Assembly (NCBI GenBank): GCA_043798995.1
Contig: JAZDOD010000008.1
Coordinates: 25,327 to 89,326, forward strand
Source of the DNA: a bacterium
GTDB lineage: Bacteria > Patescibacteriota > Patescibacteriia > JAACEG01 > JAGUWE01
Reading direction: 5' to 3'
DNA length: 64,000 bases
How positions within the stretch are numbered: the first letter of the stretch is position 1; the number at the start of each line of letters is the position of its first letter. Positions 2,083 to 27,352 of the stretch are shown one piece after another. The notes under the pieces are model-generated. The model made no database searches. It saw only the letters and a program-made list of their open reading frames with translations, and had not been told where the DNA came from. The position numbers were made by a program, and so were the translations under genes.

Positions 2083-2175
2083 TAGCCAAGATTAGCAAAT
2101 TTTCTTCTGTGGAACTCGCCCCGCCTTTGGCGGGGCTCAAACAATCCTCGTGCGAAAATTTGCCAATCTTGGCTT
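2083..2175 (+). repeat. Family-1 structured element, copy 1; candidate ncRNA or REP-like element
   Basis: Outer stem agccaagattagcaaatttt / aaaatttgccaatcttggct. Conserved core ATTTTCTTCTGtGGAACTC, then hairpin gccccgcctttggcggggc, then TCAAACAATCCTCGTGCGAAAAT. Homologous copies lie at 8554 and 14521. Confidence 0.6.
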
Positions 2176-2212
2176 CGGCGTCCCTTTTATTCATCATCAT
2201 TTTAACACCCTC

Positions 2213-2241
2213 TTGACAAAGAAGCAACAAGGTGATAAGAT
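2213..2241 (+). promoter_or_regulatory. Sigma70-like promoter: TTGACA, 17-nt spacer, TAAGAT
   Basis: TTGACA at 2213-2218, a 17-nt spacer and TAAGAT at 2236-2241. It sits upstream of the 2306 gene, whose RBS is AAGGAGG. Confidence 0.35.
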
Positions 2242-2305
2242 AAGAAGTTAATAAGGAGCTCTTTTTATTTTAGTACAAACCAATTACAAAACAAGGAGGT
2301 TAAAG

Positions 2306-2926
2306 ATGAGTCAATTAGTTACAAAAAAAAGGAAAGATAAGGAAGAGTTGGAAATGTTATTTTATAATCAGTGGTTAATGCTGAAGAAACGCGGTTGCCC
2401 CAAGCAGATTTTGGAATTTTTTAATAATCAGAAAAACGAGGTTGTTTCCGTTGCCAGCCGGATTTCATTTACCAAAGGCAATCTCCCTATTCTTTTAGTT
2501 CTTCCCCGGACTTCTCTAACTATTCATACTCAGATGACAATGGTGCGAAATGGCAAAATCAAAGGTTATACTATGATTGATCCTGTCGGGGTTTTTGAGA
2601 TGATTAAAACTCCCTCACGGCCATATTATCTTTTTGATGTAGAAAACGGCCGGGAAACCCTTGGCCAAAGCCCTGAAAAAGCCGAAAAGATAATTAAAAA
2701 ACAAAGACGCCTTTGTTCAACAGAAGTAGAAATTATTAACCTGGCTCTCCAAACCAATGTTTTAAAAAGACATTACCTTGACGCTACTGGCTGCCGCTAC
2801 ATTGATGAATCAAAAGTTCCCTATCTAGGCATGATAAAAGATAAACCAATTCTTCACTGGTATCGTTTAAAAAACGGCCATCCTTTCTGGGGTTCGCCTT
2901 CTTGTGGTAAACGTTTAGCACTTTAA
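2306..2926 (+). CDS. Hypothetical protein
   Basis: 206-aa ORF with a strong RBS (caaggagguuaaag ATG). I recognise no motifs. Confidence 0.6.
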   Translation: MSQLVTKKRKDKEELEMLFYNQWLMLKKRGCPKQILEFFNNQKNEVVSVASRISFTKGNLPILLVLPRTSLTIHTQMTMVRNGKIKGYTMIDPVGVFEMIKTPSRPYYLFDVENGRETLGQSPEKAEKIIKKQRRLCSTEVEIINLALQTNVLKRHYLDATGCRYIDESKVPYLGMIKDKPILHWYRLKNGHPFWGSPSCGKRLAL

Positions 2927-2937
2927 ATATTATTTAA

Positions 2938-2978
2938 AGGGGTAGATTAACCAAATTCTACCCCTTTTCTTTTTTTAG
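2938..2978 (+). terminator. Rho-independent terminator
   Basis: Hairpin aggggtaga ... tctacccct followed by a T-run (ttttcttttttt). Confidence 0.5.
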
Positions 2979-3021
2979 TTGTCAAAAGAAGAAATTTAAA
3001 CTAAAATAAAGTAAGGAAATT

Positions 3022-4626
3022 ATGCTTAGCTTAAAGGAAAAATTTAATTTTGATTGGCAATTTTTGGTTTTGGCCGGTTTAGCTATTGTTTTTTTCTTCG
3101 TTTATTCTTATCTGCCTTTGCAAGCGCCCGAAAAGTTTGTTTCGCCGGATGAAACAGCTAATTTTGTCTTTATTAAAACTTTAGCCAAAGAAGGCGTGCC
3201 GCGGATTTATGAGCCGCTTAACCGCGAGGTTGATAATTTGATTCATCCGCGCAGTATCAATGTCTATGGCGATTATTTGGTGCCGGGCAGTTTTTTGGGT
3301 TTAATTTTAATTTACGGACTGCTCGGTAAAATATTCGGTCTTTGCGTTGTTTCTTTTTTGACGCCTCTTCTAGCTATTTTGGCAGCTTTATTTTTTTATT
3401 ACCTGATTAAAAAAATTTTCAGCGCCGATGTTGCTTTTTTTTCCGGCCTTTTTCTACTGATTCACCCCGCTTTTTGGTATTGGACGAGCCGTTCCTTAGC
3501 TAATAATGTTTTATTTGTTTCTTTGGTGATAGGAGGACTCGCGATTTTAACTGTCAGGAAAAAGAAAAATGAATTAACTTTTGCCCTGGGAGGTTTGTTT
3601 TTTGGTTTAGCGGCAATAGTCCGAACTTCGGAAATAGTTTGGCTTGGTTTCATGCTTTTGGCTTTAGCTCTAATTTACCGTAAATATCTTTCCTGGCGCA
3701 GGATTTTTGTTTTTATCTTTTTCTTTGTTTTGGTGATGTTGCCAATTTTTTATTATAATCAAATTCTTTATCAGAGTCCTTTTGCCAGCGGTTATTCACA
3801 GCTTCAGGAAAATCTGCCACCGCCGCGCTTTTTTATTTCCAAAGCCCAAATTAAACATTTCTTTTTCCCCTTTGAAGTGGTGAGTGATAATTTTTTGAAA
3901 AATTTTTTCAATTATTTTGTTTCATTTTTTCTTATTTATTTTATTTTTTTTATTTTAGGGACCTTTCTTTTTATTTGGCGGTTAAAAAAAGAAAAACGGC
4001 CGCAGAAAATTTATTTCATTTTTTTTCTTATAATTTCGGTGTATTTAATAATATATTATGGCAGTTGGAATTTTCATGACAATTTAGATCCTGCTAAAGT
4101 TACGATTGGCACTTCTTATGTCCGTTATTGGCTGCCTGTCTATATTTTTTCTCTGCCCTTTGTGAGCTTGATTTTTTTAGCTTTTTTAGATATTTTTAAA
4201 AAGAAGTATTTAAAGTTGCTTATCGGCGGCTTAGCCATTTTAATTTTATTTGTTTATTCAGTCAATTTGGTTTTTTCCAATGAGGAGGGTTTATTGAGAA
4301 TCAAAGAGAATCTTTGGGATTATCAGGAAAAATCCAAAACTATCCAACGGCTAACCGAATCTAACGCGGTTATCGTAGCTGATCGCAACGATAAGACAGT
4401 TTTTCCCGAGCGAAGAGCGGTAAGTTGTTTGATTGCCGATTGCCCGAAATTTAAATCTTTAGGCAAGTTGATTGAACGCACCCCGGTTTATTATTACCCC
4501 AGCTCTCTCAATTTTAAAGCCGGGGAATTTAACAAAAATGTTTTAATAAAATACGGACTAGAGATTGATGAGGGCAGGGCGGTGAAAGAGAAAGAGAAAA
4601 TTTATAAATTTAGAATTAAGAATTAA
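3022..4626 (+). CDS. GT-C family glycosyltransferase (ArnT/PMT-like polytopic membrane protein)
   Basis: 534 aa with at least 10 predicted TM helices. A first periplasmic loop with a PDE motif (FVSPDETANF) is typical of GT-C enzymes. It lies next to the rml sugar-nucleotide genes. Confidence 0.6.
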   Translation: MLSLKEKFNFDWQFLVLAGLAIVFFFVYSYLPLQAPEKFVSPDETANFVFIKTLAKEGVPRIYEPLNREVDNLIHPRSINVYGDYLVPGSFLGLILIYGLLGKIFGLCVVSFLTPLLAILAALFFYYLIKKIFSADVAFFSGLFLLIHPAFWYWTSRSLANNVLFVSLVIGGLAILTVRKKKNELTFALGGLFFGLAAIVRTSEIVWLGFMLLALALIYRKYLSWRRIFVFIFFFVLVMLPIFYYNQILYQSPFASGYSQLQENLPPPRFFISKAQIKHFFFPFEVVSDNFLKNFFNYFVSFFLIYFIFFILGTFLFIWRLKKEKRPQKIYFIFFLIISVYLIIYYGSWNFHDNLDPAKVTIGTSYVRYWLPVYIFSLPFVSLIFLAFLDIFKKKYLKLLIGGLAILILFVYSVNLVFSNEEGLLRIKENLWDYQEKSKTIQRLTESNAVIVADRNDKTVFPERRAVSCLIADCPKFKSLGKLIERTPVYYYPSSLNFKAGEFNKNVLIKYGLEIDEGRAVKEKEKIYKFRIKN

Positions 4627-4647
4627 GATTTATGATTTAAGAATTTT

Positions 4648-5250
4648 ATGGATAAAGATAATTTAAAAAGATGGCATAAGCGAATCAGGATAATTTTAAT
4701 TATTATTCCAATTTTAACTTTCATTTGGCTGGTCAACAAAAACCTTGTTCCTTCGGGAAAACTCTCGGCAAATTATAATTTACAAGAACTTTCTCCTTAT
4801 ATTAGTCGGCTTTATCCGGCTGGACGAGTTTTGGGCGTTGAACAAAGTAAAAACGGCGATTATTATCAGTCAATTGTCATTGACCCGGTTTATTTTAAAG
4901 TTTATTTGCCAGTAAGTTTTGAGCGTGCTAAAATTATTTTAAAATTTCAAACGAATAAAGTTAATAATTTACGCCTTGGCTATCAAATCGGCCCTGACTT
5001 TCAATATTATTTTAAAAATGTTGTGCCGATTAAAAGAGAAGGCGGGTGGCTGATGTCCGAGGTTGATTTTAATTTAGCCAACGCTTATATTAAAGATAAT
5101 AAACTAAAATTTGCCATCTCCTCGCCCCGGCTTGATGAAACTGAAGGAGAGATTAAAATTAATTCAATTCAAGTGGTTTTAGAAAAAGAACCATTAACAA
5201 TAAAAGATGTGCTAATGTTGATTAAAAAGTTTGTTAAAAAGATTTTGTAA
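4648..5250 (+). CDS. Hypothetical membrane-anchored protein
   Basis: 200 aa with an N-terminal TM helix (IILIIIPILTFIWLV). Confidence 0.5.
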   Translation: MDKDNLKRWHKRIRIILIIIPILTFIWLVNKNLVPSGKLSANYNLQELSPYISRLYPAGRVLGVEQSKNGDYYQSIVIDPVYFKVYLPVSFERAKIILKFQTNKVNNLRLGYQIGPDFQYYFKNVVPIKREGGWLMSEVDFNLANAYIKDNKLKFAISSPRLDETEGEIKINSIQVVLEKEPLTIKDVLMLIKKFVKKIL

Positions 5251-5254
5251 ACTT

Positions 5255-5473
5255 ATGTTTTTCAAAAATTCGGAACAAAAAAAATCAATTAATAAATTTA
5301 TTTTAGAAGTTATTGACGATATTTTTAAAATTTCGGTGGTTACGTTTTTGATTTTTGCTTTGTTTGAACTTTGGCGGCCGGGTTTTGCGGTTAATTATCT
5401 TAATATGAATATGCTTTTAGGATTAGTTTTGGCAAGCGGGATAGTGAGTTTGCTTTTTAATATAAATGATTAG
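5255..5473 (+). CDS. Small membrane protein, 2 TM
   Basis: 72-aa ORF with two hydrophobic helices. The start could be 5231 or 5255. Confidence 0.3.
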   Translation: MFFKNSEQKKSINKFILEVIDDIFKISVVTFLIFALFELWRPGFAVNYLNMNMLLGLVLASGIVSLLFNIND

Positions 5474-5507
5474 TTTATATATTTTATTTAAAATAAATTA
5501 GATTTTT

Positions 5508-5843
5508 ATGAAAAAGACTAAATTAATCTTGGGAATTTTTGTTGCGTTATTTCTTGTTTCATTTATTATAGCTTATTGTTTTAATTCGCTCGGTTTTTTA
5601 GGGCTGTGTAGGGTTGGTTATAAAATTGGTCAAGGAATGGGATTGCGTTTTTGTTATAAGCCAACTGGTTTTGATGGAAGACCTTGCGATAGAAAAACTG
5701 ATTGTGGTGGAGGCGAATGCTTTTTAGTTGATCAAAATAGATTAACGGGAAGGGGGATCTGTAATGATTTACCCTATGGTTGCCATACACGAATAAACGA
5801 AAAAGGTAATTTTAACGCAGGAGAAATCCTTTGTATTGATTAA
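5508..5843 (+). CDS. Secreted cysteine-rich small protein
   Basis: Signal peptide or TM (LILGIFVALFLVSFIIA) and a mature region with about 10 Cys (…PCDRKTDCGGGECF…GICND…GCH…LCID). Confidence 0.5.
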   Translation: MKKTKLILGIFVALFLVSFIIAYCFNSLGFLGLCRVGYKIGQGMGLRFCYKPTGFDGRPCDRKTDCGGGECFLVDQNRLTGRGICNDLPYGCHTRINEKGNFNAGEILCID

Positions 5844-5871
5844 TAAAAAATTTTTACAAAGGTAAATTTTT

Positions 5872-6330
5872 TTGATTATGATCAATGGAGTAAAAATTAT
5901 TGAGCTTAAAAAGAAGGAGGACGCCAGGGGGTGGTTAGCTGAGATTTACAGAAAAGACGAGATTAATTATCAGCCGGTGATGAGCTATGTAAGCGTGACC
6001 AAGCCGGGTGTTATTCGCGGGCCGCATGAACACAAAAAACAAGCTGATTTTTTTGTTTTTTTAGGGTCGGGCAAATTTCGTCTTTATCTTTGGGATAATA
6101 GGCCAGATTCTCTAACTTATCAAAAACAAGAAATTGTTGAAGCCGGCGAAGATAATCCAATGGCTGTTTTAGTTCCGGCCGGCGTGGTTCATGGCTACAA
6201 ATGCATTTCCGAAATCCCAGGCTGGTGCATTAATTTGCCGGATAAGCTTTATAAAGGCGAAGATAAAAAAGAAGAGGTTGATGAGATAAGATGGGAAAAC
6301 GATCCCAATTCGCCATTTAAGATAGAGTAG
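5872..6330 (+). CDS. dTDP-4-dehydrorhamnose 3,5-epimerase family cupin (RmlC/FdtA-like)
   Basis: DARGWLAEIYR and RGPHEH…FFVFLGSGKFRLYLWD resemble the RmlC cupin core. An alternative ATG start lies at 5878; 5872 is a TTG. Confidence 0.6.
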   Translation: MIMINGVKIIELKKKEDARGWLAEIYRKDEINYQPVMSYVSVTKPGVIRGPHEHKKQADFFVFLGSGKFRLYLWDNRPDSLTYQKQEIVEAGEDNPMAVLVPAGVVHGYKCISEIPGWCINLPDKLYKGEDKKEEVDEIRWENDPNSPFKIE

Positions 6331-6339
6331 ATTTCATTT

Positions 6340-6460
6340 AATTAAGTCAAAGGTCAAAATTCAAAAGTCAAAAATTCAAGTCAAAAGTTAAAAGTTTTTA
6401 AATTAATTTTGCATTTTGAATTGTCATTTTGCATTTTGATTTTTGCATTTTGAATTTTTT
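6340..6460. repeat. AT-rich degenerate tandem repeats forming an imperfect long palindrome
   Basis: Left half repeats (g/t)tcaaaa about 7 times; right half repeats ttttgca/attttga. The two halves are roughly reverse-complementary. Confidence 0.5.
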
Positions 6461-6856
6461 ATGGATTGTATTTTTTGTAAAATTATTGCCGGAGAAATTC
6501 CAAGCCACAAAGTTTACGAAGACGACAATTATTTTGCTTTTTTGGATATCAGGCCGTTAAATCCGGGGCATACTTTAGTGGTGCCAAAAAAACATTATCG
6601 CTGGGTTTGGGACGCGGAAGACATTGGCGGCTATTATCAGGTGGTGCAGAAGATTGCCAAGACCCTGAGAAAAGTTTTTGCGACTGAATATATTGTTTCT
6701 TTGGTTTTTGGCGAAGAAGTGCCGCATGCCCATGTCTGGTTGGTGCCAAGATTACCCGATGACGGTCATGGCGGCGCGATTAAATTAGATAGTATTAAAG
6801 AAATAAGCAAAGAAGAAATGGCCGAAATCGCGGTAAAAATAAAGAACAATTTGTAA
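6461..6856 (+). CDS. HIT-family (histidine triad) nucleotide hydrolase
   Basis: MDCIFCKIIAGEIP…NPGHTLVVPKKH…EVPHAHVWLVP matches the HIT motif HxHxHxx. Confidence 0.7.
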   Translation: MDCIFCKIIAGEIPSHKVYEDDNYFAFLDIRPLNPGHTLVVPKKHYRWVWDAEDIGGYYQVVQKIAKTLRKVFATEYIVSLVFGEEVPHAHVWLVPRLPDDGHGGAIKLDSIKEISKEEMAEIAVKIKNNL

Positions 6857-6867
6857 ATTTTAAAATT

Positions 6868-7875
6868 ATGAAAATTTTGGTCACTGGCGGAGCAGGTTTT
6901 ATTGGCTCCAACTTCATACACTATATCCTTAAAAAATACCCTGATTACAAAATTATCAATCTGGATTTTTTGACTTACGCCGGCAATTTGGAGAATTTGA
7001 AAGAGGTTGAAAAAAATCCAAATTATCAATTTGTTAAAGGCGATGTGGCTGATAAAAATTTAGTGAATAATTTGGTCAAAGAAATTAATCTTATTGTTCA
7101 TTTTGCTGCCGAATCTCATGTTGACCGTTCTATTATGGACGCTAAGGCCTTTCTTCACACCAATGTTATCGGCACTCACAATTTAATAGAAGCGGCCAAA
7201 AATAACAGCAATATTCGTTTTCATCATATTTCCACCGATGAAGTTTTTGGTTCTCTTGAGCCGAATAATCTGCTTTTCAATGAAAATACGTCCTACAGCC
7301 CTCGCAGTCCTTATGCTGCCTCTAAGGCCGCGGCCGATCATTTAGTCAGAACTTATTATCATACTTACAATCTGCCAATCACAATTTCTAATTGTTCTAA
7401 TAATTATGGGCCTTATCAATTTCCGGAAAAATTAATACCCCTTTTTATTACTAATTTAATAGAAGGAAAGAAAGTTCCGCTTTATGGCGATGGCTTGAAT
7501 ATTCGCGATTGGCTTTTTGTAGAGGATCATTGCGAGGCGATAGATTTGATTATTCATCAAGGAAAAATCGGTGAGACATATTGCATCGGCGGAAACTCTG
7601 AAAAAACCAATAAAGAAATCACTAATAAAATTTTGGAGATTATGGGTAAGTCGGAGGAAATGATTGAATATGTCAAAGATCGTCCGGGCCATGACCGCCG
7701 TTACGCTATTGATTTTTCCAAGATTAAAAAAGAATTGGGTTGGCAGCCGAAAATAGATTTTGAGGAAGGACTAAAAAATACCATTGAGTGGTATAAAGGA
7801 AACGAGTCCTGGTGGCAAGACATTAAATCAGGCGCTTATTTAGAATATTATCAAAAGCAATATCATGAAAGGTAA
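6868..7875 (+). CDS. rfbB: dTDP-glucose 4,6-dehydratase
   Basis: MKILVTGGAGFIGSNF…, YAASKAAADHLV (YxxxK), 335 aa SDR-extended fold, in the rml cluster. Confidence 0.85.
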   Translation: MKILVTGGAGFIGSNFIHYILKKYPDYKIINLDFLTYAGNLENLKEVEKNPNYQFVKGDVADKNLVNNLVKEINLIVHFAAESHVDRSIMDAKAFLHTNVIGTHNLIEAAKNNSNIRFHHISTDEVFGSLEPNNLLFNENTSYSPRSPYAASKAAADHLVRTYYHTYNLPITISNCSNNYGPYQFPEKLIPLFITNLIEGKKVPLYGDGLNIRDWLFVEDHCEAIDLIIHQGKIGETYCIGGNSEKTNKEITNKILEIMGKSEEMIEYVKDRPGHDRRYAIDFSKIKKELGWQPKIDFEEGLKNTIEWYKGNESWWQDIKSGAYLEYYQKQYHER

Positions 7876-8563
7876 GAAAATTTTATTAGGTCTAACCACT
7901 ACGTCGCGTTCTGATTGGCGAAAAAAAATTAAAGAGATAGAATTTTATAATATTAAGGAGATAGCTTTATTCCCAACAGTTTTGTTGCCAGAAGAGAGAA
8001 AAGAATTATATCAATTATTAGAAAAAAGCCCGGTTGAAAAAATTACGCTTGTGCATTTGCGCAGTGATATGGAAATTTGGGAACTTGACTATTTAACAGA
8101 AAGATACAAAACAGAAGTTTTTAATATTCATCCGATTAAAAAGCATCCTTTAAAACATGATTATTCAAAATACGCTGATAAAATTTATATTGAAAATCTA
8201 ACCGAATTACCGCGTATTCCAAATCTTAAAAAATTTGCCGGGCTATGCCTTGATTTCAGCCATTGGGAAGATAAAGCCAGCACTATTGTCGATTACGATA
8301 AAGAAATTCGTTTTCTGATTAAAAAATTTAAAACAGGTTGCTGTCATATTTCAGTGACTAAAAGTTATCTGCAAAAAGATCCAGGTCGGCCGGGGAAGTT
8401 TGAATGTTCATCGCATTGGCTGGATGATTTAAGCGAATTAAATTATATTAAAAAATATTTAGTATTTTTGCCTGAAATAATCAGCATTGAATTAGAAAAC
8501 TCGTTTGTCGAGCAGCTTAAAGCGAAAAAATATTTAGAGAAAATGATAAACAATCAGGGTTAG
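7865..8563 (+). CDS. Hypothetical protein embedded in the rml operon
   Basis: 232 aa, overlapping the rfbB stop by 11 nt. I recognise no motif. Confidence 0.5.
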   Translation: MKGKKILLGLTTTSRSDWRKKIKEIEFYNIKEIALFPTVLLPEERKELYQLLEKSPVEKITLVHLRSDMEIWELDYLTERYKTEVFNIHPIKKHPLKHDYSKYADKIYIENLTELPRIPNLKKFAGLCLDFSHWEDKASTIVDYDKEIRFLIKKFKTGCCHISVTKSYLQKDPGRPGKFECSSHWLDDLSELNYIKKYLVFLPEIISIELENSFVEQLKAKKYLEKMINNQG

Positions 8564-8637
8564 TAAATTTTCTTCTGCGGAACTCACTCGCTTCGCTCGT
8601 TCAGACAATCCTCGTGCGAAAATTTACTGACCCTGAT
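8554..8637 (+). repeat. Family-1 structured element, copy 2
   Basis: Outer stem tcagggttagtaaatttt / aaaatttactgaccctga, which overlaps the stop codon of the upstream ORF. The core is the same as copy 1, ATTTTCTTCTGCGGAACTC…TCAGACAATCCTCGTGCGAAAAT. Confidence 0.6.
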
Positions 8638-8657
8638 TTAAAAGGCATCAATATTTT

Positions 8658-9506
8658 ATGAAAAAAATTTTAATTATTGGCGCCAAGGGTATGCTGGGTC
8701 AGCAGTTGATTGAAGTTTTTGGCGAGGATAAAAATTATCAAGTTATCGGCTGGGGCAAAGAGGAAATTGATATAACCAATTTTGACCAAATTCGCGAGAA
8801 AATTTCAGCAGAAAGGCCGGACATAATTATTAACTGCGCTGCCTATAATAATGTTGACGGCTGTGAAGAAAATGAGGAGCTAGCCAACTTAATCAATGGC
8901 TACGCGGTTGGTTGTTTAGCTAAAATTTCTCAAGAAATCGGCACTTTACTTATTCATTACAGTAGCGGTTATGTTTTTGACGGTAGTAAAGAAGGTTACA
9001 TTGAAGATGATAAGCCACAGCCAATTTCCAAATATGCCCTTTCAAAATATTTAGGGGAAAAAGAATTAACCAGGGAAAATAAAAAATTTTATTTAATTCG
9101 TACTAACTTACTTTTTGGTCCCGGGGCTTTAACCCCTGGCGCTAAAAAAAGTTTTGTTGATTTGATTTTGGATTTGGCCGAGGTCCGTGATTCTTTTAAA
9201 TTTGTCACCGATGAAATAAGCAACCCAACTTATGTTGTTGATTTAGCAGAGGTAACTAAAAAATTAATTGAAGAAAAATATCCTTTTGGTATTTATCATT
9301 TAGTTAATGATGGTCAAGCTTCTTGGTATGATTGGGCCAAGGAAATTTTTAGACTTGAGAAGATTGAAAAAAAAATTATACCCATTAAAGCTGAAGAATA
9401 TCCGCGGCCGGCCAAACGGCCAAAAAATTCAGTTTTACTTAATACCAAATTTCCGAAATTGCGAAGTTGGCAGGAGGCTTTAGCTTCCTATTTGCAAAAA
9501 AGATAA
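8658..9506 (+). CDS. rfbD: dTDP-4-dehydrorhamnose reductase
   Basis: MKKILIIGAKGMLG…, INCAAYNNVDGCE, 282 aa, typical RmlD. Confidence 0.8.
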   Translation: MKKILIIGAKGMLGQQLIEVFGEDKNYQVIGWGKEEIDITNFDQIREKISAERPDIIINCAAYNNVDGCEENEELANLINGYAVGCLAKISQEIGTLLIHYSSGYVFDGSKEGYIEDDKPQPISKYALSKYLGEKELTRENKKFYLIRTNLLFGPGALTPGAKKSFVDLILDLAEVRDSFKFVTDEISNPTYVVDLAEVTKKLIEEKYPFGIYHLVNDGQASWYDWAKEIFRLEKIEKKIIPIKAEEYPRPAKRPKNSVLLNTKFPKLRSWQEALASYLQKR

Positions 9507-9574
9507 AATGTGGTAAAAGTAATATATCAGATATTTAGTGAGTTAAGAGTTAAATTTAGTAATTCTTAATTGTT

Positions 9575-10300
9575 ATGCGCGGAATAATTTTATCAGGCGG
9601 AAGCGCTACTCGGCTTCGCCCTTGCACTAAGGTAACGAGCAAGCAACTCTTGCCAGTTTATAATCGGCCAATGATTTATTATCCTTTGAATACTTTAATT
9701 AAAGCGGGAATTAAAGAGATTTTAATCATTGTGGCGCCAGAGCGGGCAGGGGATTATCTTAATTTGCTCGGCAGCGGCAAAGAATTTGGCGTTAAATTTA
9801 CTTATGAAATTCAGGATAAACCTCGTGGCCTGGCCGAAGCGTTTATTATTGGAGAAAATTTTATTGACAAAGAAGATGTAGTGATGATTTTAGGCGATAA
9901 TATTTTTGAAGATGATATTAGCCAAGAAATTCAGAGCTTTAAAAAGGGCGCAAAGATTTTTGCCAAAAAAGTGCCTGACCCAGAAAGATTTGGTGTAGTC
10001 AAATTCAATGAGAGCCAGAGAGCTGAAAAAATAGTTGAAAAACCGAAAGAATGGCTTAGTGATTATGCCATTACCGGACTTTATATCTATGATGGTCGGG
10101 TGGTAGAAGCAGCCAAGCAGGTTAAGCCAAGCGTTAGAGGGGAGTTGGAAATTGTTGATTTACATAATTGGTATCTGGAAAAAGGTGAACTTGAGGTGGC
10201 GATGGTTAATGGTGAATGGATAGATGCTGGAACTTTTGACAGCCTGCTTCGGGCCCAAATTTTGGCTAAAGAAAAATTGCAGGGCAAATTAGTGATATAA
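9575..10300 (+). CDS. rfbA: Glucose-1-phosphate thymidylyltransferase-like sugar nucleotidyltransferase
   Basis: MRGIILSGGSATRLRPCT…KQLLPVY is the nucleotidyltransferase G-rich loop; short-form RmlA. Confidence 0.75.
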   Translation: MRGIILSGGSATRLRPCTKVTSKQLLPVYNRPMIYYPLNTLIKAGIKEILIIVAPERAGDYLNLLGSGKEFGVKFTYEIQDKPRGLAEAFIIGENFIDKEDVVMILGDNIFEDDISQEIQSFKKGAKIFAKKVPDPERFGVVKFNESQRAEKIVEKPKEWLSDYAITGLYIYDGRVVEAAKQVKPSVRGELEIVDLHNWYLEKGELEVAMVNGEWIDAGTFDSLLRAQILAKEKLQGKLVI

Positions 10301-10317
10301 AATTGTAGTTAAAAATA

Positions 10318-10424
10318 AAGGGTATTAAACCCTTTGATATCAGCGCCTGCCTGCGCAGGCAGGCTCGTTCGGAAATGAATCCGCCAGCTGGCGGATTCAT
10401 TTCTCTCGCTTGCTTGATAATAAA
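10318..10424 (+). repeat. Family-2 mosaic palindromic element, copy A (modules M1-M2-M3)
   Basis: aaaccctttgatatcagcGCCTGCCTGCGCAGGCAGGCtcg contains a perfect 20-bp palindrome. It is followed by aatgaatCCGCCagctGGCGGattcatt and ctcgcttgcttgataataaaa. Related copies lie at 17023 and 46862. Confidence 0.6.
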
Positions 10425-10456
10425 AAACAAGTTTTAAGCTTGTTTTTTATTTTGGT
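10425..10456. terminator. Bidirectional intrinsic terminator between convergent genes
   Basis: aaaacaag tttt aag cttgtttttt flanked by A/T runs on both strands. Confidence 0.45.
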
Positions 10457-10473
10457 TAAATATTGAATTTAAT

Positions 10474-11859
10474 TTATTGGATTTCAATTTGGTATAAATT
10501 AAAAAGCCCAGTTTCTTTTTTTAAAGTTAAATATAGTTTATCACCATTACTGTTTATAAATAAATCGTTAATTTTTCCTTTAACCGGATAATTAACAATG
10601 TTGATTTTGTCCCTAAGATCTAACTCAACAATTTTAATCTCTTCTTCGGAACTGAAAATAAGATGATTCCAATCCGGATACCAGATAATTCGACCGATGG
10701 GTTGACTGAATCTTGAAATAAGTTCTTTTTTATTTTCTTTTTGGTAATAAACAATAATTTCAAAGTCGTTATAATAGAGAAGTTTATCATTATCTTTTTC
10801 TTCTGCCCAACTGGCATCTTTGGCAGTAGCAGTTAAAATTTCCCCTAAATCATCATTGACCACTATTAATTTAGTTGCGGTTTTATCCAACAAGGTTAGT
10901 AAATTAGGCGAATCAATAAAACGATAGTTTTTGCCATCTAAGCCAAAAGAGTTGGTCAATTGCTGTTTTAATGCACTTCTATCGGCTTTGGCTAAATAAT
11001 TAGTTTCAGGAGTTGAAATTATGAGATAAAAATCATTGCCTTTGATTAAAAAATCATTGATTTTAAGATTGCTCGGTACTATTTCTAAAATACTTTTTTC
11101 GTTTCCGTTGCCCAAATCTAATTGAATAATTTTATTTTTTTGAACGTAATATAGAAAATTATTATTTTGTTTATCCAATTTGATATTTTGCCACAAAACA
11201 GCTGCCGGCAGAACAACTCTTTGCTGGCTGAAATTTTCTAAATTGTAAATGTAAAATTCTGGACTTGATCTTTTTTTGTCCAAGTGACGATCTATAGCAT
11301 AGAAGATTTTTTTATTATCAAAGGATGGGATAAAATCAACAAATTCAGCGGTAGTGGTAGCTAAAGTTGTTTCCTGAACATTTACTAAATTTAAAAGATT
11401 TAAACTGGAAAAATCATTTTCCCCCTTTACGGATAAGATTTTATCGTTATTTTTAGTCGATTTAATTAATTTTAGATTTTGAGAAAATTTTATCGGTAAA
11501 ATTTTATTTTTAAAAAGTTTTATATTCTGAGCAAAGGTGGTTAATTCAGGGTAAATGGCCAATGTTTTTTGCCAGTCAAAGTAATTGCTTTTACTAACTT
11601 TTATTTTATATTCGCCGGGCAAAAGCCGTGTTAAACGGACAAAATTATCAAAAATCGTGGTGCTTAATTTGAATTCATCGTTTAGGAAAACATTAGCTTC
11701 TTTCGGTTGATATGTTAAAATTAGAGCCCCTGTTTTTTCAAAAGTATTTTTTTTGAAATTAAATTGATAACCTTGGGTATGCAAAACAATCAAGTAGGTG
11801 AAAATAAAAAAACAAAGAACAAAAAATAAAAAAATTATTCTCCTGGTGCGAAGAGTCAT
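10474..11859 (-). CDS. Membrane-anchored secreted protein with a PEGA-like domain and beta-rich repeats
   Basis: N-terminal TM helix (IIFLFFVLCFFIFTYLIVL), a PGEYKIKVSKSNYFDWQKT PEGA-like motif and repeated NxxLYY-type beta strands. Confidence 0.5.
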   Translation of the reverse strand: MTLRTRRIIFLFFVLCFFIFTYLIVLHTQGYQFNFKKNTFEKTGALILTYQPKEANVFLNDEFKLSTTIFDNFVRLTRLLPGEYKIKVSKSNYFDWQKTLAIYPELTTFAQNIKLFKNKILPIKFSQNLKLIKSTKNNDKILSVKGENDFSSLNLLNLVNVQETTLATTTAEFVDFIPSFDNKKIFYAIDRHLDKKRSSPEFYIYNLENFSQQRVVLPAAVLWQNIKLDKQNNNFLYYVQKNKIIQLDLGNGNEKSILEIVPSNLKINDFLIKGNDFYLIISTPETNYLAKADRSALKQQLTNSFGLDGKNYRFIDSPNLLTLLDKTATKLIVVNDDLGEILTATAKDASWAEEKDNDKLLYYNDFEIIVYYQKENKKELISRFSQPIGRIIWYPDWNHLIFSSEEEIKIVELDLRDKINIVNYPVKGKINDLFINSNGDKLYLTLKKETGLFNLYQIEIQ

Positions 11860-11865
11860 AATTAT

Positions 11866-13119
11866 TTAGATGATTTTTATTTTGGCGCCGATTTGTTGAA
11901 GGCGTTCGGCAATATTTTCATAGCCTCTTTCAATTTGATAGACATTGTCAATGGTTGTCTGACCCTCGGCAATCAAGCCCGCCAGAATTAAAGTCATGCC
12001 GGCTCTCAGGTCGGGGCTGTCAACTTTTTTGCCATAAAGCTTGGTTGGGCCATTGACAATAACACGATGCGGATCGCACATAATAATATTCGCCCCCATC
12101 TGGTTAAGTTTATCAGTAAAAAAAAGGCGGCCTTCAAAAATAGGGTCATGAATTAAACTTGTACCTTGGGCTTGGGTCATAAGCAGTGTAAATGGCGCCT
12201 GAAGATCAGTGGGGAAGCCGGGGTATTCATGGGTGATGAGATCCGTGGCTTTAAATTTTTTCACCTGTTTGGTTAAAAGATAATCGTTGCCGATTTCAAA
12301 AACTCCGCCGACTTTTTTTATCATAGCTAAAAAAGTTTCTAAACGAGCTGGTTCGCAGTTATTTATCTTTAAGGAATTGCCGGTTAAAAGGCCCATAATA
12401 ACAAAAGTGCCGGTTTCAATTCGATCAGGCATAATAGTCAGATCTCGGCCATTAAGCTTTTCTACGCCCTCAATAATTATTGTCGGCGTACCAGCCCCAT
12501 TAATTTTAGCGCCGCAGTCATTGAGCCATTGGGCTAAGCTGGAAATTTCAGGCTCCATGGCGCAGTTTTTAAGAATAGTTTTGCCTGGCGTAAGAGTTGC
12601 CAACATTATTAAGGTCTCGGTGCCAGTCACGCTGACTCGAGTAAAAATAAAATTAGCGCCTCGTAATTTATTGGCTTTAATAACAAAAAAATTTTCTTCT
12701 TCAATAATTTCTGCTCCCAGGGCCTTAAAACCCGCCAAAAACATATCAATCGGTCTTTGGCCGATAGGGCAGCCGCCCGGTTTGGTAATTTTAACTTCCT
12801 TGAGACGAGCTAAAAGCGGGCCTGACAAAACTATAGAGGCTCTTAAGCTTTGAGCAAGTTTAGTGTCCAGTTGGGTTTTAGAAACTGATTTAGTGCAAAT
12901 TGAATATTTACCATCCTTTATTTTTTCAATTTTTGTCCCCGAATCTTTTAGAATTTCGATCATTCTTAAAACATCACCGATTTCCGGTACATTATCAATA
13001 GTTATTTCTTCATCTATCAAAATACAGCCGGCTAAGACCTTTAAAGCCAGGTTTTTTGCTCCTTTAACCTCAACTTCACCGCTAAGTTTATGGCCACCTT
13101 CAATCAAATATTGATTCAT
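11866..13119 (-). CDS. murA: UDP-N-acetylglucosamine 1-carboxyvinyltransferase
   Basis: Full-length similarity to MurA, with KNLALKVLAGC…, the catalytic Cys region KPGGCPIGQRPIDMF, and GFPTDLQAPF. Confidence 0.9.
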   Translation of the reverse strand: MNQYLIEGGHKLSGEVEVKGAKNLALKVLAGCILIDEEITIDNVPEIGDVLRMIEILKDSGTKIEKIKDGKYSICTKSVSKTQLDTKLAQSLRASIVLSGPLLARLKEVKITKPGGCPIGQRPIDMFLAGFKALGAEIIEEENFFVIKANKLRGANFIFTRVSVTGTETLIMLATLTPGKTILKNCAMEPEISSLAQWLNDCGAKINGAGTPTIIIEGVEKLNGRDLTIMPDRIETGTFVIMGLLTGNSLKINNCEPARLETFLAMIKKVGGVFEIGNDYLLTKQVKKFKATDLITHEYPGFPTDLQAPFTLLMTQAQGTSLIHDPIFEGRLFFTDKLNQMGANIIMCDPHRVIVNGPTKLYGKKVDSPDLRAGMTLILAGLIAEGQTTIDNVYQIERGYENIAERLQQIGAKIKII

Positions 13120-13248
13120 AAATTTTTAGTCTTCAAATTACTTATAGTTTAATTTATTAAACTTAAATTGTAAAGATGGCATTGTCAATTAATACTATCT
13201 GTGTTAAAATTAAAAAAATTGTGAATTTAAAATTTAATTTTTTAATTT

Positions 13249-14496
13249 ATGTTTTTATTTTTACAAAATCAAAATCAAAAACCGAAAAATAAAGGCGTTA
13301 AATTTTTAGCTTTCTTTTTGGTTATTATTTTAATTGTTAGCAGTTTTACTTTGGGAATTTTAGTTGGGCAAAGACAGATTTTTTTGGGCAGTAGTTTTAG
13401 AACAGTTAATAGCGGTCTTTTAAGCAGTAAAGCTAATGAAAAAATTGATTTTTCTCTTTTTTGGCAGGTTTGGAATTTTGTTAAAGATAATTATGTTAAC
13501 CAGCCGGTTGAGGATAAAAAATTATTTTATGGAGCGCTTTCCGGGATCGTGGCCTCGCTTGAAGATCAGCATTCAGTTTTTTTGGAACCTGAAACAGCCC
13601 AAAAATTCAGTCAGGAATTAAATAGTGATTTGGAAGGAATCGGCGCCGAAGTCGGTATTAAAAAAGACCTTTTAACAATTGTGGCACCATTGCCTGATTC
13701 GCCGGCCGAAAAAGCTGGGCTCCGGGCAGGCGACAAGATTTTAAAAATTGATGATTTGGAGACCCAAGGCCTGGATTTAGATTATGCTATTAATTTAATT
13801 AGAGGCAAAACCGGGACGCAAGTTCGTTTAACTATTGGCCGGGAGGGCTGGACCGAACCAAAAGAATTTACTATTACTAGAAAAAAAATCCATTTTAAAA
13901 CCGTTAAGTGGGAAAAGAAGGATAACAATATCATTTTATTGACCATTTCCAATTTTAATGAGGATACCGAAGCCGAGTTTAATTTAGCCGCCAAGGAAAT
14001 TTTAGCCCAATCACCGCGCGGTCTAATTTTGGATTTGCGCAACGATCCAGGCGGTTATTTGGATACGGCTGTTCATGTAGCTAGTTTTTGGGTGGAAAAA
14101 GGACAAGTAGTAGTTAAGGAAAAATTTAGCAATGGTCTTGTGACTGAGCATAAATCAAACGGTCCGGCTTATTTTAAAGATTATAAAACAATTGTTTTGG
14201 TTAATCAGGGCAGTGCTTCTGGTTCAGAAATATTAGCCGGCGCGCTTCAGGATTATGGCTTGGCGACTTTAGTTGGTAAAAAAACTTTTGGTAAGGGATC
14301 TGTTCAGACATTGGAGGAATTAAAAGATGGATCAGCCGTTAAATTAACCATTGCTAAGTGGCTTACGCCACGCGATCGTTCGATTGAAGAAGAAGGCGTT
14401 AAGCCGGATACGGAAATTGATTTAACCGAAGATGATTATAATAATGATAAGGACCCGCAATTGGACAAGGCGATTGAATTGATTAATAAAAAATAG
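13249..14496 (+). CDS. ctpA: Carboxyl-terminal processing protease (S41, PDZ-containing)
   Basis: N-terminal TM helix, a PDZ domain (GIGAEVGIKKD…AGLRAGDKILKID) and S41 motifs LILDLRNDPGGYLD and GSASGSEILAGAL. Confidence 0.85.
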   Translation: MFLFLQNQNQKPKNKGVKFLAFFLVIILIVSSFTLGILVGQRQIFLGSSFRTVNSGLLSSKANEKIDFSLFWQVWNFVKDNYVNQPVEDKKLFYGALSGIVASLEDQHSVFLEPETAQKFSQELNSDLEGIGAEVGIKKDLLTIVAPLPDSPAEKAGLRAGDKILKIDDLETQGLDLDYAINLIRGKTGTQVRLTIGREGWTEPKEFTITRKKIHFKTVKWEKKDNNIILLTISNFNEDTEAEFNLAAKEILAQSPRGLILDLRNDPGGYLDTAVHVASFWVEKGQVVVKEKFSNGLVTEHKSNGPAYFKDYKTIVLVNQGSASGSEILAGALQDYGLATLVGKKTFGKGSVQTLEELKDGSAVKLTIAKWLTPRDRSIEEEGVKPDTEIDLTEDDYNNDKDPQLDKAIELINKK

Positions 14497-14520
14497 TTTT
14501 AGTTTGTCAATTTTAAAATT

Positions 14521-14607
14521 AGCCAAGATTAGTTAATTTTCTTCTGCGGAACTCTCCGCCAGCCGGCGGATCAAACAGTCCTCGTGCGAAAATTAGCTAA
14601 TCTTGGC
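14521..14607 (+). repeat. Family-1 structured element, copy 3
   Basis: Outer stem agccaagattagttaatttt / aaaattagctaatcttggc, with G-U compensatory changes relative to copy 1. Same core, with inner hairpin tccgccagccggcgga. Confidence 0.6.
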
Positions 14608-14634: not shown

Positions 14635-14907
14635 ATGAAAACCTTGCAAATCAAAGTTTATGGCCGGGTGCAGGGAGTATTTTTTCGTTCAAGTATCAAA
14701 GAAAAAGCTGAAAATTTTGGGATTAGTGGCTGGGTGAAAAATGAGCCGGACGGAACAGTTTTAATTGTTGCTCAGGGTCCTGAAAATAGCTTGAAAGAGT
14801 TGATTAAATGGTGTTATAATGGAATCGGAGGAGCTCGGGTCACTAAAATTGAAAGTGAGCCGATTGAGCCAAGAGAAAAATTTGAAAAATTTGAGATAAA
14901 ATTATGA
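14635..14907 (+). CDS. acyP: Acylphosphatase
   Basis: [11 protein letters not shown] and [11 protein letters not shown] are acylphosphatase signatures in a 90-aa protein. The track's upstream start at 14584 lies inside the repeat and is unlikely. Confidence 0.75.
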
Positions 14908-20094: not shown

Positions 20095-20349
20095 TTGTAT
20101 GCTAAACCGCTTGCGAATAAGCTTATTTTGTGCTATGATCCCAATATGTACAACTGGTCAGTAGACGTCAAAAAATTGAAAAAAGACAAGAAAAAATATG
20201 CCATCTGGCGCTTGGAGCAGATGGTAAATTTTGGTTTGACTGGGGAAAAAATCAAAGCCGGAGAATTAAGGAAAAGCTGGCGCAAGTTGGAGCTGGATCC
20301 CCTTAAAAAGAAGTATTTAAAAATGCTTTTATGGCCAAGACGATCTTAA
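20095..20349 (+). CDS. Small basic protein; candidate cognate antitoxin of AbiEii
   Basis: 84-aa ORF starting at TTG (alternative ATG at 20146). It overlaps the downstream toxin gene by 19 nt and has an RBS-like AAAGG 7 nt upstream. Confidence 0.4.
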   Translation: MYAKPLANKLILCYDPNMYNWSVDVKKLKKDKKKYAIWRLEQMVNFGLTGEKIKAGELRKSWRKLELDPLKKKYLKMLLWPRRS

Positions 20350-20996
20350 GTCCGAATCAGAAAATAATTCTGGATGTTTTAAGCAGCGACGATAACCTCC
20401 GTCGTGATTTTTATCTTACCGGAGGTACGGCGCTATCCGAATATTATCTTCATCATCGCCTGTCGGAGGATCTGGATTTTTTTTCCGAGAAAGAGTTTGA
20501 TCCGCAAATAATTTCCGTATTTTTTAAAAAAAACAAATCCGCGATAGGCATCAGAAAAATTGCCTTTGAAAGCAGTTTCAACCGCAATCTTTTTTTTCTG
20601 CATTTGCCAAAAAGCGAGATTATTAAAACCGAATTTACTTATTTTCCCTTTCCACGAATCGAAAAGAAAAAAGGAGCAGACAAGCTGGCCATCGATGGTA
20701 TTTTGGATATTGCTGTTAATAAAATTTTCACCATCTATCAGAAACCGCGCTCAAGGGATTTTATTGACCTGTATTTTATTCTCAAAAAAACCGGCTGGAG
20801 AATCGAAGATATTGTGACAAAAGCCAAAATTAAATTTGACTGGCACATAGATTACCTGCAGCTGGGTAGCAAATTCTTGCTGGCAAAAGAAGTCGGCGAT
20901 CGTCCGCGGATGCTTGTGAAAATCAATGACAAAGTTTGGCAGAATTTTTTTGTCAAAGAAGCCAAAAACTTCAAGAGCAAGATATTGGTGAAATAA
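20331..20996 (+). CDS. AbiEii/AbiGii-family nucleotidyltransferase toxin (type IV TA / abortive infection)
   Basis: YLTGGTALSEYYLHHRLSEDLDFF matches the AbiEii GGTAL…HRxSxDLDF nucleotidyltransferase motif, in a 221-aa protein. Confidence 0.7.
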   Translation: MAKTILSPNQKIILDVLSSDDNLRRDFYLTGGTALSEYYLHHRLSEDLDFFSEKEFDPQIISVFFKKNKSAIGIRKIAFESSFNRNLFFLHLPKSEIIKTEFTYFPFPRIEKKKGADKLAIDGILDIAVNKIFTIYQKPRSRDFIDLYFILKKTGWRIEDIVTKAKIKFDWHIDYLQLGSKFLLAKEVGDRPRMLVKINDKVWQNFFVKEAKNFKSKILVK

Positions 20997-23401: not shown

Positions 23402-23863
23402 ATGTTTTTTATAAAACAACAGAAAAACAGTGGCTTTACTTTAATTGAGTTAATTATTGTCATTGCCTTGATTGGTATTTTGGCTATTTTAGCCATACCT
23501 TTTTATCAATCGCTTCAGCTTAAGGCGGATTTGAATCAGGTTGGGGAAAAACTGGCTTCGGATCTTCGCCGCCAGCAAACCTACACTATTTCCGGCAAGG
23601 GAGCGAGCGCCTGGGGTGTGAGTTTTAATGCCGATTCCTACACCTTGTTTAAAGGCGTTTCTTTTGTTTTACGCAATCCGACGGCTGATGAAGTGGTTAA
23701 TTTGCCAAAATCAGTTCGTTTGTCTTTTCCGGCAGCGGAATTAGTTTTTAGCGTTCCGACAGGCAATACTTCATCTCCGGGCCAATTGACTTTAACCAAT
23801 TTAGTCAATAATCAGACCTTAACCATTAATATTTTTTCTCAGGGCTTGGTGCAATTAAATTAA
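23402..23863 (+). CDS. Type IV pilin-like protein (prepilin-type N-terminal cleavage/methylation domain)
   Basis: NSGFTLIELIIVIALIGILAILAIPFY is a class III signal peptide, G|FTLIE. Confidence 0.7.
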   Translation: MFFIKQQKNSGFTLIELIIVIALIGILAILAIPFYQSLQLKADLNQVGEKLASDLRRQQTYTISGKGASAWGVSFNADSYTLFKGVSFVLRNPTADEVVNLPKSVRLSFPAAELVFSVPTGNTSSPGQLTLTNLVNNQTLTINIFSQGLVQLN

Positions 23864-23882
23864 ATAGTTTAGAAATATATTT

Positions 23883-26819: not shown

Positions 26820-26821
26820 TT

Positions 26822-27352
26822 ATGATGAAAAATACCAAATCCCAAAAAACAAAAGAATGGCGGGGAAGATCAAAAGGATTCACCTTAGTTGAATTGGTGA
26901 TTTATCTGGCCATTGTCAGTTTTGTTTTGTTGGTTGTCAGCGGATTTTTTTATAATATTCTGCTTGGCCGCAGCAAATTCAGCGCCCGCAGTGAAATTGC
27001 TTATAATGCTAATTTTGTTGAAAAAAAATTAGCTTTTTATATTCAGCAAGCCCAAAGCCTTCAAAGCGTCAGTCCCCAAACTTTGGTTTTAAATTTACCG
27101 CTAACGCAGACCATTACTTTTAATTTTAATGCCGCCAGACAGAAGCTAACCATGCAGGAAAGCAGCGGCCCCGTGGTTTATTTGAATACTGATAAGGTGG
27201 CGGTCAGCGGCAGTTTTTCTGATCTAAGTTATTTCCGGAGAAGCAGGAATATTTTAGTTGATTTAAAAATTTTAACCAAAAGCTCCAACCCCGCGCCATT
27301 TTGGCAAAATGAAACTGATTTTAAATTAAGTTTTGAATTAAGAAGCAAATAA
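26822..27352 (+). CDS. Minor pilin / pseudopilin-like protein
   Basis: SKGFTLVELVIYLAIVSFVLLVVSG is a prepilin motif. Confidence 0.65.
   Translation: MMKNTKSQKTKEWRGRSKGFTLVELVIYLAIVSFVLLVVSGFFYNILLGRSKFSARSEIAYNANFVEKKLAFYIQQAQSLQSVSPQTLVLNLPLTQTITFNFNAARQKLTMQESSGPVVYLNTDKVAVSGSFSDLSYFRRSRNILVDLKILTKSSNPAPFWQNETDFKLSFELRSK

Follow-up and report, generated by a model that had tools for sequence, protein, structure and literature searches.

The 64,000-nt stretch of contig JAZDOD010000008.1 analysed here (the window) is 32–43% G+C, has compact same-strand operons, and gives its best protein matches to metagenome-assembled genomes (MAGs) of Patescibacteria. It contains three copies of an intergenic element of roughly 90 nt (Table 1), all on the + strand and in the same orientation, as a sequence-only reading of the window had proposed, with boundaries that agree with ours to within 1–5 nt. 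Each copy has an outer stem of ~21 bp and two near-invariant blocks (AATTTTCTTCTGYGGAACTC and TCARACARTCCTCGTGCGAAAATT) separated by a variable inner hairpin. Along a copy, the order is outer arm, AATTTTC, the block TTCTG(C/T)GGAACTC, the variable segment, the block TCA(A/G)ACA(A/G)TCCTCGTGCG, AAAATT and the complementary arm. Our conclusion is that the element most probably represents a new form of the REP/REPIN-like class of small hairpin mobile elements.

The three copies stand out clearly from the rest of the window. The 16-mer TTCTTCTGYGGAACTC and the 15-mer TCCTCGTGCGAAAAT each have exactly three perfect matches; at up to three mismatches there are six matches to the 16-mer (shuffle mean, 0.79) and five to the 15-mer (shuffle mean, 2.67). 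A covariance model of the element, run over all 64 kb with filters off, returned only these copies, at 85–94 bits, with the next match at 22 bits. Folding z-scores of the copies against shuffled sequences range from −6 to −7.6. The sequence-only reading had described an invariant core, an outer helix of ~18 bp, and an inner hairpin retained in two of the three copies. The core is indeed mostly invariant, with one substitution in the 5ʹ block of copy 1 (CTGTGG for CTGCGG). The outer helix is paired as described and extends to ~21 bp, since it includes the conserved AATTTTC/GAAAATT. The inner hairpin is present in the two copies named, and the corresponding segment of copy 2 folds as well, on the opposite strand only (tandem G·A pairs and a GAA loop, GCGAAGC). 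Copies 1 and 3 have nearly identical arms (TAGCCAAGATTAG...CTAATCTTGGC) at unrelated loci, with different hairpins; the arms therefore travel with the element.

Table 1. Element copies, their parts, and non-coding RNA features in the window
Feature	Coordinates	Strand	Remarks
Copy 1, whole paired element	2084–2174	+	Arms 2084–2097 and 2161–2174; 93.5 bits; between divergent genes
Copy 1, conserved 5ʹ block AATTTTCTTCTGTGGAACTC	2098–2117	+	
Copy 1, variable inner hairpin GCCCCGCC-TTT-GGCGGGGC	2118–2136	+	
Copy 1, conserved 3ʹ block TCAAACAATCCTCGTGCGAAAATT	2137–2160	+	
Copy 2, whole paired element	8552–8638	+	Gap between open reading frame 7865–8563 and rmlD (8658–9506); 5ʹ arm 8552–8565; 85.2 bits
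Copy 2, conserved 5ʹ block AATTTTCTTCTGCGGAACTC	8566–8585	+	
Copy 2, inner segment ACTCGCTTCGCTCGT	8586–8600	+	− strand reads ACGAGCGAAGCGAGT, a GAA-looped hairpin with tandem G·A pairs
Copy 2, conserved 3ʹ block TCAGACAATCCTCGTGCGAAAATT	8601–8624	+	
Copy 3, whole paired element	14522–14607	+	Gap between ctpA (13249–14496) and the acylphosphatase gene (14635–14907); 90.5 bits
Copy 3, conserved 5ʹ block AATTTTCTTCTGCGGAACTC	14535–14554	+	
Copy 3, variable inner hairpin TCCGCC-AGCC-GGCGGA	14555–14570	+	
Copy 3, conserved 3ʹ block TCAAACAGTCCTCGTGCGAAAATT	14571–14594	+	
RNase P RNA class A	38269–38689		Rfam, 218.8 bits
Ribosomal protein L10 leader	54631–54774		Rfam, 47.3 bits, just over the threshold of 44
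tRNA-Tyr (GTA)	61868–61951		Rfam

The window copies belong to a wider family. Pattern scans yielded ~35 distinct copies across Patescibacteria MAGs and metagenomes. With a pattern that fixed the middle of both blocks, a search of 185,579 species, each represented by a single genome, gave 10 loci in eight MAGs. Seven of these are labelled Patescibacteria or unclassified bacterium, and one Gammaproteobacteria; the carriers span at least two NCBI candidate phyla, Kueneniibacteriota and Portnoyibacteriota, with near-identical blocks. In metagenomes, a pattern restricted to the outer ends of the blocks matched 27 loci, comprising 26 genuine copies and one chance match (L031). In each scan the positions left free by the pattern are almost invariant, and therefore the conservation is not merely an effect of the search patterns. 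The copy in the MAG labelled “uncultured Gammaproteobacteria” (L009, contig CAZZBC010000024.1) is a typical one, on a contig of 43% G+C with hisS and relA/spoT as neighbours, which may be a mis-binned Patescibacteria contig or a true occurrence outside Patescibacteria.

Diverged copies, from a GC-rich lineage (three in L026 and one in L044) and from L017, were added with the covariance model. Some of the diverged copies have compensatory changes within the AATTTTC/GAAAATT stem itself, as AATTTCC/GGAAATT and CCAGTTTG/TAAACTGG, and some carry an inserted second hairpin that creates a three-way junction. In two long variants (L026:7028–7172 and L044:4077–4230) this second hairpin is itself conserved (GTCCCGATA(A/C)GCC...GC(G/T)TATCGGGAC). 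The three copies of L026 lie within 10 kb and share one orientation. Across the family, element length ranges from ~90 to ~155 nt and the inner hairpin from 7 to ~90 nt. A perfect, loopless 24-bp palindrome between convergent genes (L039:7147–7194, AAACCAAAAAAGACAAATCTT|AAGATTTGTCTTTTTTGGTTT) scores 26 bits through its stem only and does not belong to the family. To judge from Rfam 15, the sequence collections and the literature searched, the family is previously undescribed: a literature search by core sequence and keywords returned no description of the element, and we know of no small repeat family described for Patescibacteria.

It is the pairing of the stems that is kept across the family. 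Of the cells in a MAFFT alignment of 30 copies, 82% are paired, and both sides have changed in 24 of the 35 pairs; an alignment of 35 copies fitted to the covariance model gives 87% and, again, 24 of 35. None of 500 shuffles reached the observed values for either alignment, and sliding the partners, by 1–3 columns in the MAFFT alignment, lowered pairing to 30–49% and 30–44%, respectively. In the fitted alignment the double changes fall on 17 of the 21 outer-stem pairs and on all seven pairs of the inner hairpin. The short helix within the conserved core shows no covariation, and single variants support each of two alternative registers for it (U29–G83/G30–U82/C31–G81 or U29–G81/G30–C80). Hence, a conserved core between covarying stems, first noted in the three window copies, is borne out in ~35 copies from many Patescibacteria.

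One explanation for this pattern is a functional structured RNA, transcribed with the operon or from an unrecognised promoter, whose invariant loops would be the binding site of a protein or the core of catalysis or processing, with the stems serving only as scaffold; an intercistronic RNase processing or stability signal and a small ribozyme would be examples. The strong covariation of both stems is consistent with such an RNA, as are the near-invariance of the internal loops, which holds even with a search pattern that fixed flanks only, and the way in which the elements fill short gaps inside operons. However, compensatory changes around conserved blocks have also been described for REPINs (PMC3116915), and hence they are no proof of RNA.

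There is no clean RNA-strand signature, and the evidence as to strand conflicts. The reverse complement is the more stable in 35 of 47 folded sequences, by a mean of ~5 kcal/mol, in a set that held duplicate rows and hence fewer distinct copies. On the reverse strand, the mismatches form tandem 5ʹ-GA/3ʹ-AG pairs. The inner hairpin stands on an invariant tandem G·A/A·G (UGA[stem]GAG), and the largest subfamily has further tandem G·A pairs and a hairpin, GAGCGAGCG-UAA-GCGAGCGAG, with GNRA or GAA loops; these features argue for an RNA. The mismatch classes also favour the reverse strand, since stems 1 and 3 on the + strand contain 107 pyrimidine–pyrimidine versus 14 purine–purine oppositions, but most of these descend from one subfamily. 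The core of the + strand, by contrast, contains tandem U·G/G·U pairs, which are A·C mismatches on the other strand, and rare variants turn these weak pairs into U–A and G–C, or lengthen the helix to GCUGC/GCAGC, again as a structured RNA might. Wobble pairs in the outer stem, an unbiased count, show no preference (9 versus 12 by strand) and are uninformative as an indicator of strand. This conflict, in which tandem G·A pairs and folding energy favour the − strand and tandem G·U pairs and gene orientation favour the + strand, weighs against a structured RNA, as do the symmetric wobbles, a core helix without covariation, and the absence of a family match in Rfam.

The genomic context of the copies bears on the same question. 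The element lies in short intergenic gaps, including gaps within operons, and its neighbours are unrelated housekeeping genes (rml, ctpA|acyP, miaB|miaA, rnc|rpsP, ftsA|ftsZ, nrdR|nrdJ, hisS, trpS and glmM). Both flanking genes run in the direction of the element in 18 cases and against it in six; in seven cases the flanking genes diverge, and in one they converge. The 18 co-oriented copies among 24 tandem contexts are in keeping with an RNA borne by operon transcripts. Nonetheless, six tandem contexts are reversed, and at one pair of orthologous loci, described below, the element is flipped with both cores intact; operon transcription therefore cannot give one fixed RNA strand at all sites. 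Copy 1 is a further difficulty for an RNA. It lies outside any operon and outside predicted transcripts, between two divergent open reading frames (ORFs), one on the − strand (start at 2059) and one on the + strand (at 2306), and precedes the predicted promoter of the latter. The − strand ORF (2–2059) runs off the start of the window, encodes at least 686 aa with no Pfam match, has its start codon 24 nt from copy 1, and lies in a stretch with a strong excess of A over T (AT skew 0.205).

We also considered simpler roles in the expression of neighbouring genes. No promoter or terminator travels with the element in our scans, and the terminator scan found none at any window copy; with results negative or inconsistent, a role as either was rejected. 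In particular, a Rho-independent terminator needs a G+C-rich stem-loop followed by a U-tract, and the copies have none: in both orientations the flanks are T-rich or a T-run on the 5ʹ side and A-rich or an A-run on the 3ʹ side, the reverse of what a terminator would show. An arm of copy 1 overlaps a weak −35-like hexamer of the divergent gene, the sole such overlap among the copies. A riboswitch or leader of one gene is at odds with the unrelated neighbours, and a small ORF across the element would have its frame broken by the variation in hairpin length.

Comparison of orthologous sites showed that the element is mobile, with gain, partial deletion and inversion at the same site. At the site of copy 3, the ctpA|acyP spacer is 138 nt in the window, including the element, and 12, 38 and 9 nt, with neither element nor arm, in L047, L048 and L049, whose CtpA proteins are 83%, 82% and 76% identical to that of the window. 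Relative to these three relatives, copy 3 is a clean insertion without target duplication. The nrdR|nrdJ site is filled in L026 and L044, holds a degenerate palindrome without the core in L046, and is empty in L045; the ftsA|ftsZ site is filled only in L026. At the orthologous miaB|miaA loci of L016 and L020, the element is found in opposite orientations with both cores intact: the flanking proteins are 88–91% identical, and the flanking DNA aligns at ~83% only with one locus reverse-complemented relative to the element. Inspection of the flanks, including the filled and empty copy 3 sites, revealed no conserved terminal inverted repeats and, as regards target-site duplications, only sporadic short repeats in AT-rich sequence with no consistent pattern.

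These gains, losses and flips between close relatives make a mobile DNA element the most likely explanation, over a regulatory RNA of the neighbouring genes, for which ready loss in close relatives is itself a difficulty. The proposal of the sequence-only reading that the element is a functional + strand RNA co-transcribed in operons is thus only partly supported: the two orientations, the flips, the presence/absence pattern and the position of copy 1 outside transcripts do not support it, and the evenly split wobbles and the better folding of the opposite strand in most copies oppose it. We regard a structured RNA, which might be a ribozyme carried on mobile DNA, as unlikely, though worth serious consideration in view of the invariant loops and the tandem G·A motif. 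The alternative that the same reading had offered, a site for a hairpin-recognising protein, fits the data better.

Recognition by a protein need not involve mobility. The conserved core could be a chromosomal DNA site of the host, set on a cruciform-prone palindrome and bound in either orientation by a chromosome-organising, replication or repair protein. The flips of orientation without decay of the core, the few copies per genome (with those of the window clustered within 13 kb), the conservation of the core across candidate phyla, and the position of copy 1 in an apparently untranscribed divergent promoter region are consistent with such a site. However, only eight of the species representatives scanned carry the element, and it is absent in close relatives at all three polymorphic sites examined; an essential site would not be so dispensable. 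Moreover, the core is not dyad-symmetric, and orientation is biased rather than random: in 20 of 25 loci the G-rich strand carries the + form, a bias inseparable from gene direction in loci this short. We consider a host site distinctly improbable.

The site of copy 2 is more complex. In L038 and L039 (RmlD 83% and 79% identical, respectively), a 5ʹ arm alone, GG(A/T)TTAGCAAAT(T/A)TT, lies directly before the rmlD ATG and supplies the stop codon of the upstream gene. In L042 (RmlD 73% identical), a copy of the same hairpin subtype as copy 2 lies in the opposite orientation and is truncated within the hairpin, and L040 and L041 have no element. Gene content at this spot upstream of rmlD is fluid. 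In the window, the stem of copy 2 includes the stop codon of the upstream gene, as had been noticed from the sequence alone: the TAG at 8561–8563 lies in the 5ʹ arm, which also encodes the last codons of ORF 7865–8563 (+; 232 aa, no Pfam match). This ORF was seen only in the close relatives L038 and L039, and is absent between rmlB and rmlD in L040, L041 and L049; the relatives that have the ORF and lack the element still keep the arm that encodes its end. In L042, a gene for an MvaI/BcnI-type restriction endonuclease (L042:85–879) adjoins the truncated, inverted copy, in place of the 232-aa ORF.

The solo arms could be remnants of partly deleted copies or, alternatively, sequences that preceded the element. 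Under the second interpretation, insertion or homing would be templated by the target, such that the core and one arm insert beside a pre-existing sequence resembling the other arm, and the “compensatory” stems would be made by the insertion mechanism and not by selection. The “empty” rmlD sites of L038 and L039 carry, at the end of the gene, GGATTAGCAAATTTT, which equals the arm and stem of L010, from an unrelated genome, over 15 nt. Judged by RmlD identity (83, 79 and 75%), a single insertion in the lineage of the window is more parsimonious than two deletions. Similarly, empty ftsA|ftsZ sites have TCTCGTTAAAT where the arm in L026 is TCTCGCACAATTT, and base pairing of a single-stranded tail has been proposed as the way in which REPIN intermediates locate their targets (PMC3116915). 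On the other hand, the arms are homologous across unrelated loci and genomes (CGCTCRGG..TTAG..), as in copies 1 and 3, and the empty copy 3 sites have no arm-like sequence. Solo arm-like sequences occur at chance frequency in 417 kb, so that dispersed solo arms can be rejected as a target motif, and L042, a more distant relative, already has the element at the rmlD site. Target-templated insertion therefore strikes us as improbable.

Together, the dispersed paralogues, clean empty sites, one-arm and truncated remnants, inversions, patchy distribution, unrelated neighbouring genes, lack of target-site duplications and terminal inverted repeats, and strand bias lead us to favour, on balance, a small non-autonomous mobile DNA element of Patescibacteria that is recognised as a hairpin. 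Each element is one long imperfect hairpin, in which conserved blocks of ~20–24 nt, only partly complementary to each other, flank a spacer hairpin free to vary in sequence and length. The outer arms lengthen the stem, with pairing as their sole requirement. New copies arise in short intergenic gaps of housekeeping operons and are later partly deleted, sometimes leaving one arm. We infer that an enzyme encoded in trans recognises or cleaves the element at its conserved, asymmetric blocks and acts on it as a folded single strand, most plausibly an HUH/Y1-type transposase (RAYT or IS200/IS605-like) working on single-stranded DNA at replication forks. The lack of target-site duplications and terminal inverted repeats, and the bias towards the G-rich strand, would be expected of Y1 single-strand transposition into the lagging-strand template (PMC6006769). 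Complementarity of the stems might be kept if only foldable copies propagate, and template switching at quasi-palindromes may also correct the arms. Any influence on adjacent genes, through a hairpin formed in the mRNA, would be incidental.

Several observations weigh against a mobile hairpin. In four independent pairs of orthologous copies, all 44 core positions are identical (176 of 176), whereas the arms are 68–100% identical and the flanking coding DNA is ~80–85% identical in three pairs, and ~70% by global alignment in the fourth (L006/L032). Resident copies thus seem to be under purifying selection, something not predicted for a purely selfish element and in favour of a structured RNA; the signal is softened because every copy was found through exact core patterns, and the decayed copies of L042 and L046 were seen only at inspected orthologous sites. 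We found no gene for a transposase, recombinase or reverse transcriptase, or for a cognate RAYT (Y1 HUH; in REPIN systems a single-copy gene, usually with REPs on its flanks), among about 50 of the 58 window ORFs (Pfam scan), and no transposase, recombinase or reverse transcriptase gene around the copies of L026. A weak tblastn search of the window and loci (417 kb), with an IS608 TnpA sequence as query, likewise gave no match. The family has no copies in IMG/VR or the phage and plasmid collections, and its copy number is low for a REP or MITE (miniature inverted-repeat transposable element) family, with three in 64 kb and one to three seen per MAG. The conserved part is central and the ends vary, the reverse of REP elements and of elements with terminal inverted repeats, and the copy 2 locus also allows the interpretation that the element inserted where an arm-like sequence was already present.

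The constraint on the core and the mobility could also be two aspects of one activity. The element might represent a new class of mobile nucleic acid, small and either catalytic or protein-guiding, with near-invariant loops (e.g. UGA[stem]GAG and the UGUNU bulge of the reverse strand) forming a self-cleaving, self-ligating or enzyme-loading core. A hairpin of ~60–100 nt, as RNA or single-stranded DNA, would then copy itself into short intergenic gaps of Patescibacteria genomes, possibly choosing sites by pairing of one arm. We consider this the least probable of the explanations discussed here; if it were true, the mechanism of mobility would be one not described for any known element.

The window has other features of note. 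The RNase P RNA, the L10 leader and the tRNA in Table 1 are its only Rfam matches at gathering level. An ORF at 55947–56519 (+) clearly matches the Translin family (PF01997, E = 4.8e-21), whose members (Translin/TRAX) have single-stranded DNA and RNA as ligands and are, to our knowledge, uncommon in bacteria. At 20095–20996 (+), a gene for an AbiEii-type nucleotidyltransferase toxin (PF08843) follows an overlapping 84-aa ORF, and the two probably constitute a type IV toxin-antitoxin pair. At 23402–29877 (+), a cluster of type IV pilus or competence-type genes encodes three proteins with prepilin-type N-terminal methylation motifs and one that is PilM-like; dnaG and rpoD follow.

What is the significance of such an element? 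Patescibacteria have tiny, streamlined genomes. Its occurrence between essential genes (ftsA|ftsZ, nrdR|nrdJ, rnc|rpsP and the rml operon) shows that even these genomes carry active small mobile DNA, and the core, conserved across candidate phyla, provides a handle for finding the moving enzyme. The family is also a caution for RNA discovery, where conserved loops and covarying stems can stem from a mobile hairpin; since mobile hairpins can mimic the signature of an RNA, tests of orientation and of presence/absence are needed before RNA function is inferred. If the core should prove catalytic, or the recognition site of a new class of enzyme, the interest would be wider.

Among known systems, the small self-cleaving ribozymes (hammerhead, twister, hatchet, pistol and hairpin) resemble the element in having an invariant unpaired core and covarying stems of variable length, and in being multi-copy, intergenic, found in either orientation and often on mobile DNA. 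Unlike them, the element is a single interrupted hairpin, with a three-way junction only in the GC-rich lineage. Readings of CUGUUUGA[stem]GAG as a hammerhead (cf. CUGANGA[stem]GAAA) and of ACAGUCC as a hairpin-ribozyme substrate were rejected on misfits of defining core positions and topology, and neither has a covariance-model match. The inability of the sequence-only reading to match the element to a hammerhead, twister or retron msr was well founded: in Rfam 15 (hammerhead, twister, twister-sister, hatchet, pistol, HDV-like, retron msr and riboswitch families included), with typical and long variants and E-values up to 10, the best matches are generic hairpins far below threshold (24.7 versus 126 bits). 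A kink-turn has a C-helix, a 3-nt bulge and then a tandem G·A/A·G that opens the NC-helix. Read as sequence, the − strand GGAC-UGUNU-GA[stem]GA-GUUCC fits this in its tandem G·A and polarity, but departs from it in a bulge of 5 nt and an extra U in the C-helix.

The DNA elements to be compared are more numerous. Integron attC sites open on the 5ʹ side with R'' (RYYYAAC), close on the 3ʹ side with R' (GTTRRRY), contain extrahelical bases, and belong to tandem cassette arrays next to intI; the arms GTTAGAC...G(G)CTAAC present these boxes in reverse order, the neighbours are housekeeping operons and no integrase was found among the ~50 window ORFs scanned, and an attC site was therefore rejected. 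A classical DDE-derived MITE was likewise rejected, for want of conserved terminal inverted repeats and consistent flanking direct repeats, in line with the earlier remark that the pattern is the opposite of a MITE: the arms differ, and only the inner AATTTTC/GAAAATT is conserved. ERIC/IRU, Bacillus bcr1 and Neisseria Correia elements are imperfect palindromes of ~100–150 bp, intergenic within operons, in either orientation and present or absent among relatives, with an RNA or DNA hairpin kept by compensatory changes. Unlike the element, which is conserved only centrally, they are conserved over their whole length or at the ends, and several make target-site duplications (TA, TTTAT); no sequence similarity to them was found in the collections searched.

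Two groups moved by single-strand transposition come closer. With IS200/IS605-derived elements (PATE/MITE-like) the family would share hairpin-dependent recognition; like them, it lacks terminal inverted repeats and target-site duplications, and it shows a bias towards the G-rich (lagging-template) strand, the GC skew being confounded with gene direction. Their ends differ in having two separate subterminal hairpins and a fixed target of 4–5 nt 5ʹ of the left end; around the element there is just a T-rich 5ʹ flank with no conserved tetranucleotide, and no tnpA or tnpB was seen. REPINs are hairpin-forming REP doublets: two conserved, mutually inverted blocks enclose a spacer that is less conserved and often shows compensatory changes, and asymmetric excision leaves singlets as remnants (PMC3116915). 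Y1 (HUH) transposases (RAYT/TnpA-REP) mobilise them by acting on single-stranded DNA of the lagging-strand template (PMC6006769). The element differs from REPINs in that its blocks are internal, flanked by additional variable paired arms, whereas REP blocks form the ends; in that the blocks are only partly complementary to each other, are not themselves palindromes, and lack a GTAG-type head; and in its very low copy number and its hosts, Patescibacteria and not Proteobacteria. It resembles them as an intergenic hairpin of ~100 nt found in both orientations, with neither DDE-type terminal repeats nor target duplication (PMC3116915, PMC6006769), and in the asymmetric loss that leaves “singlet”-like remnants. 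Furthermore, the spacer between AATTTTCTTCTGYGGAACTC and TCARACARTCCTCGTGCGAAAATT, 7 to ~90 nt long, folds into a hairpin, with double changes in all seven modelled hairpin pairs. Of the architectures described, that of the REPIN is closest to the element.

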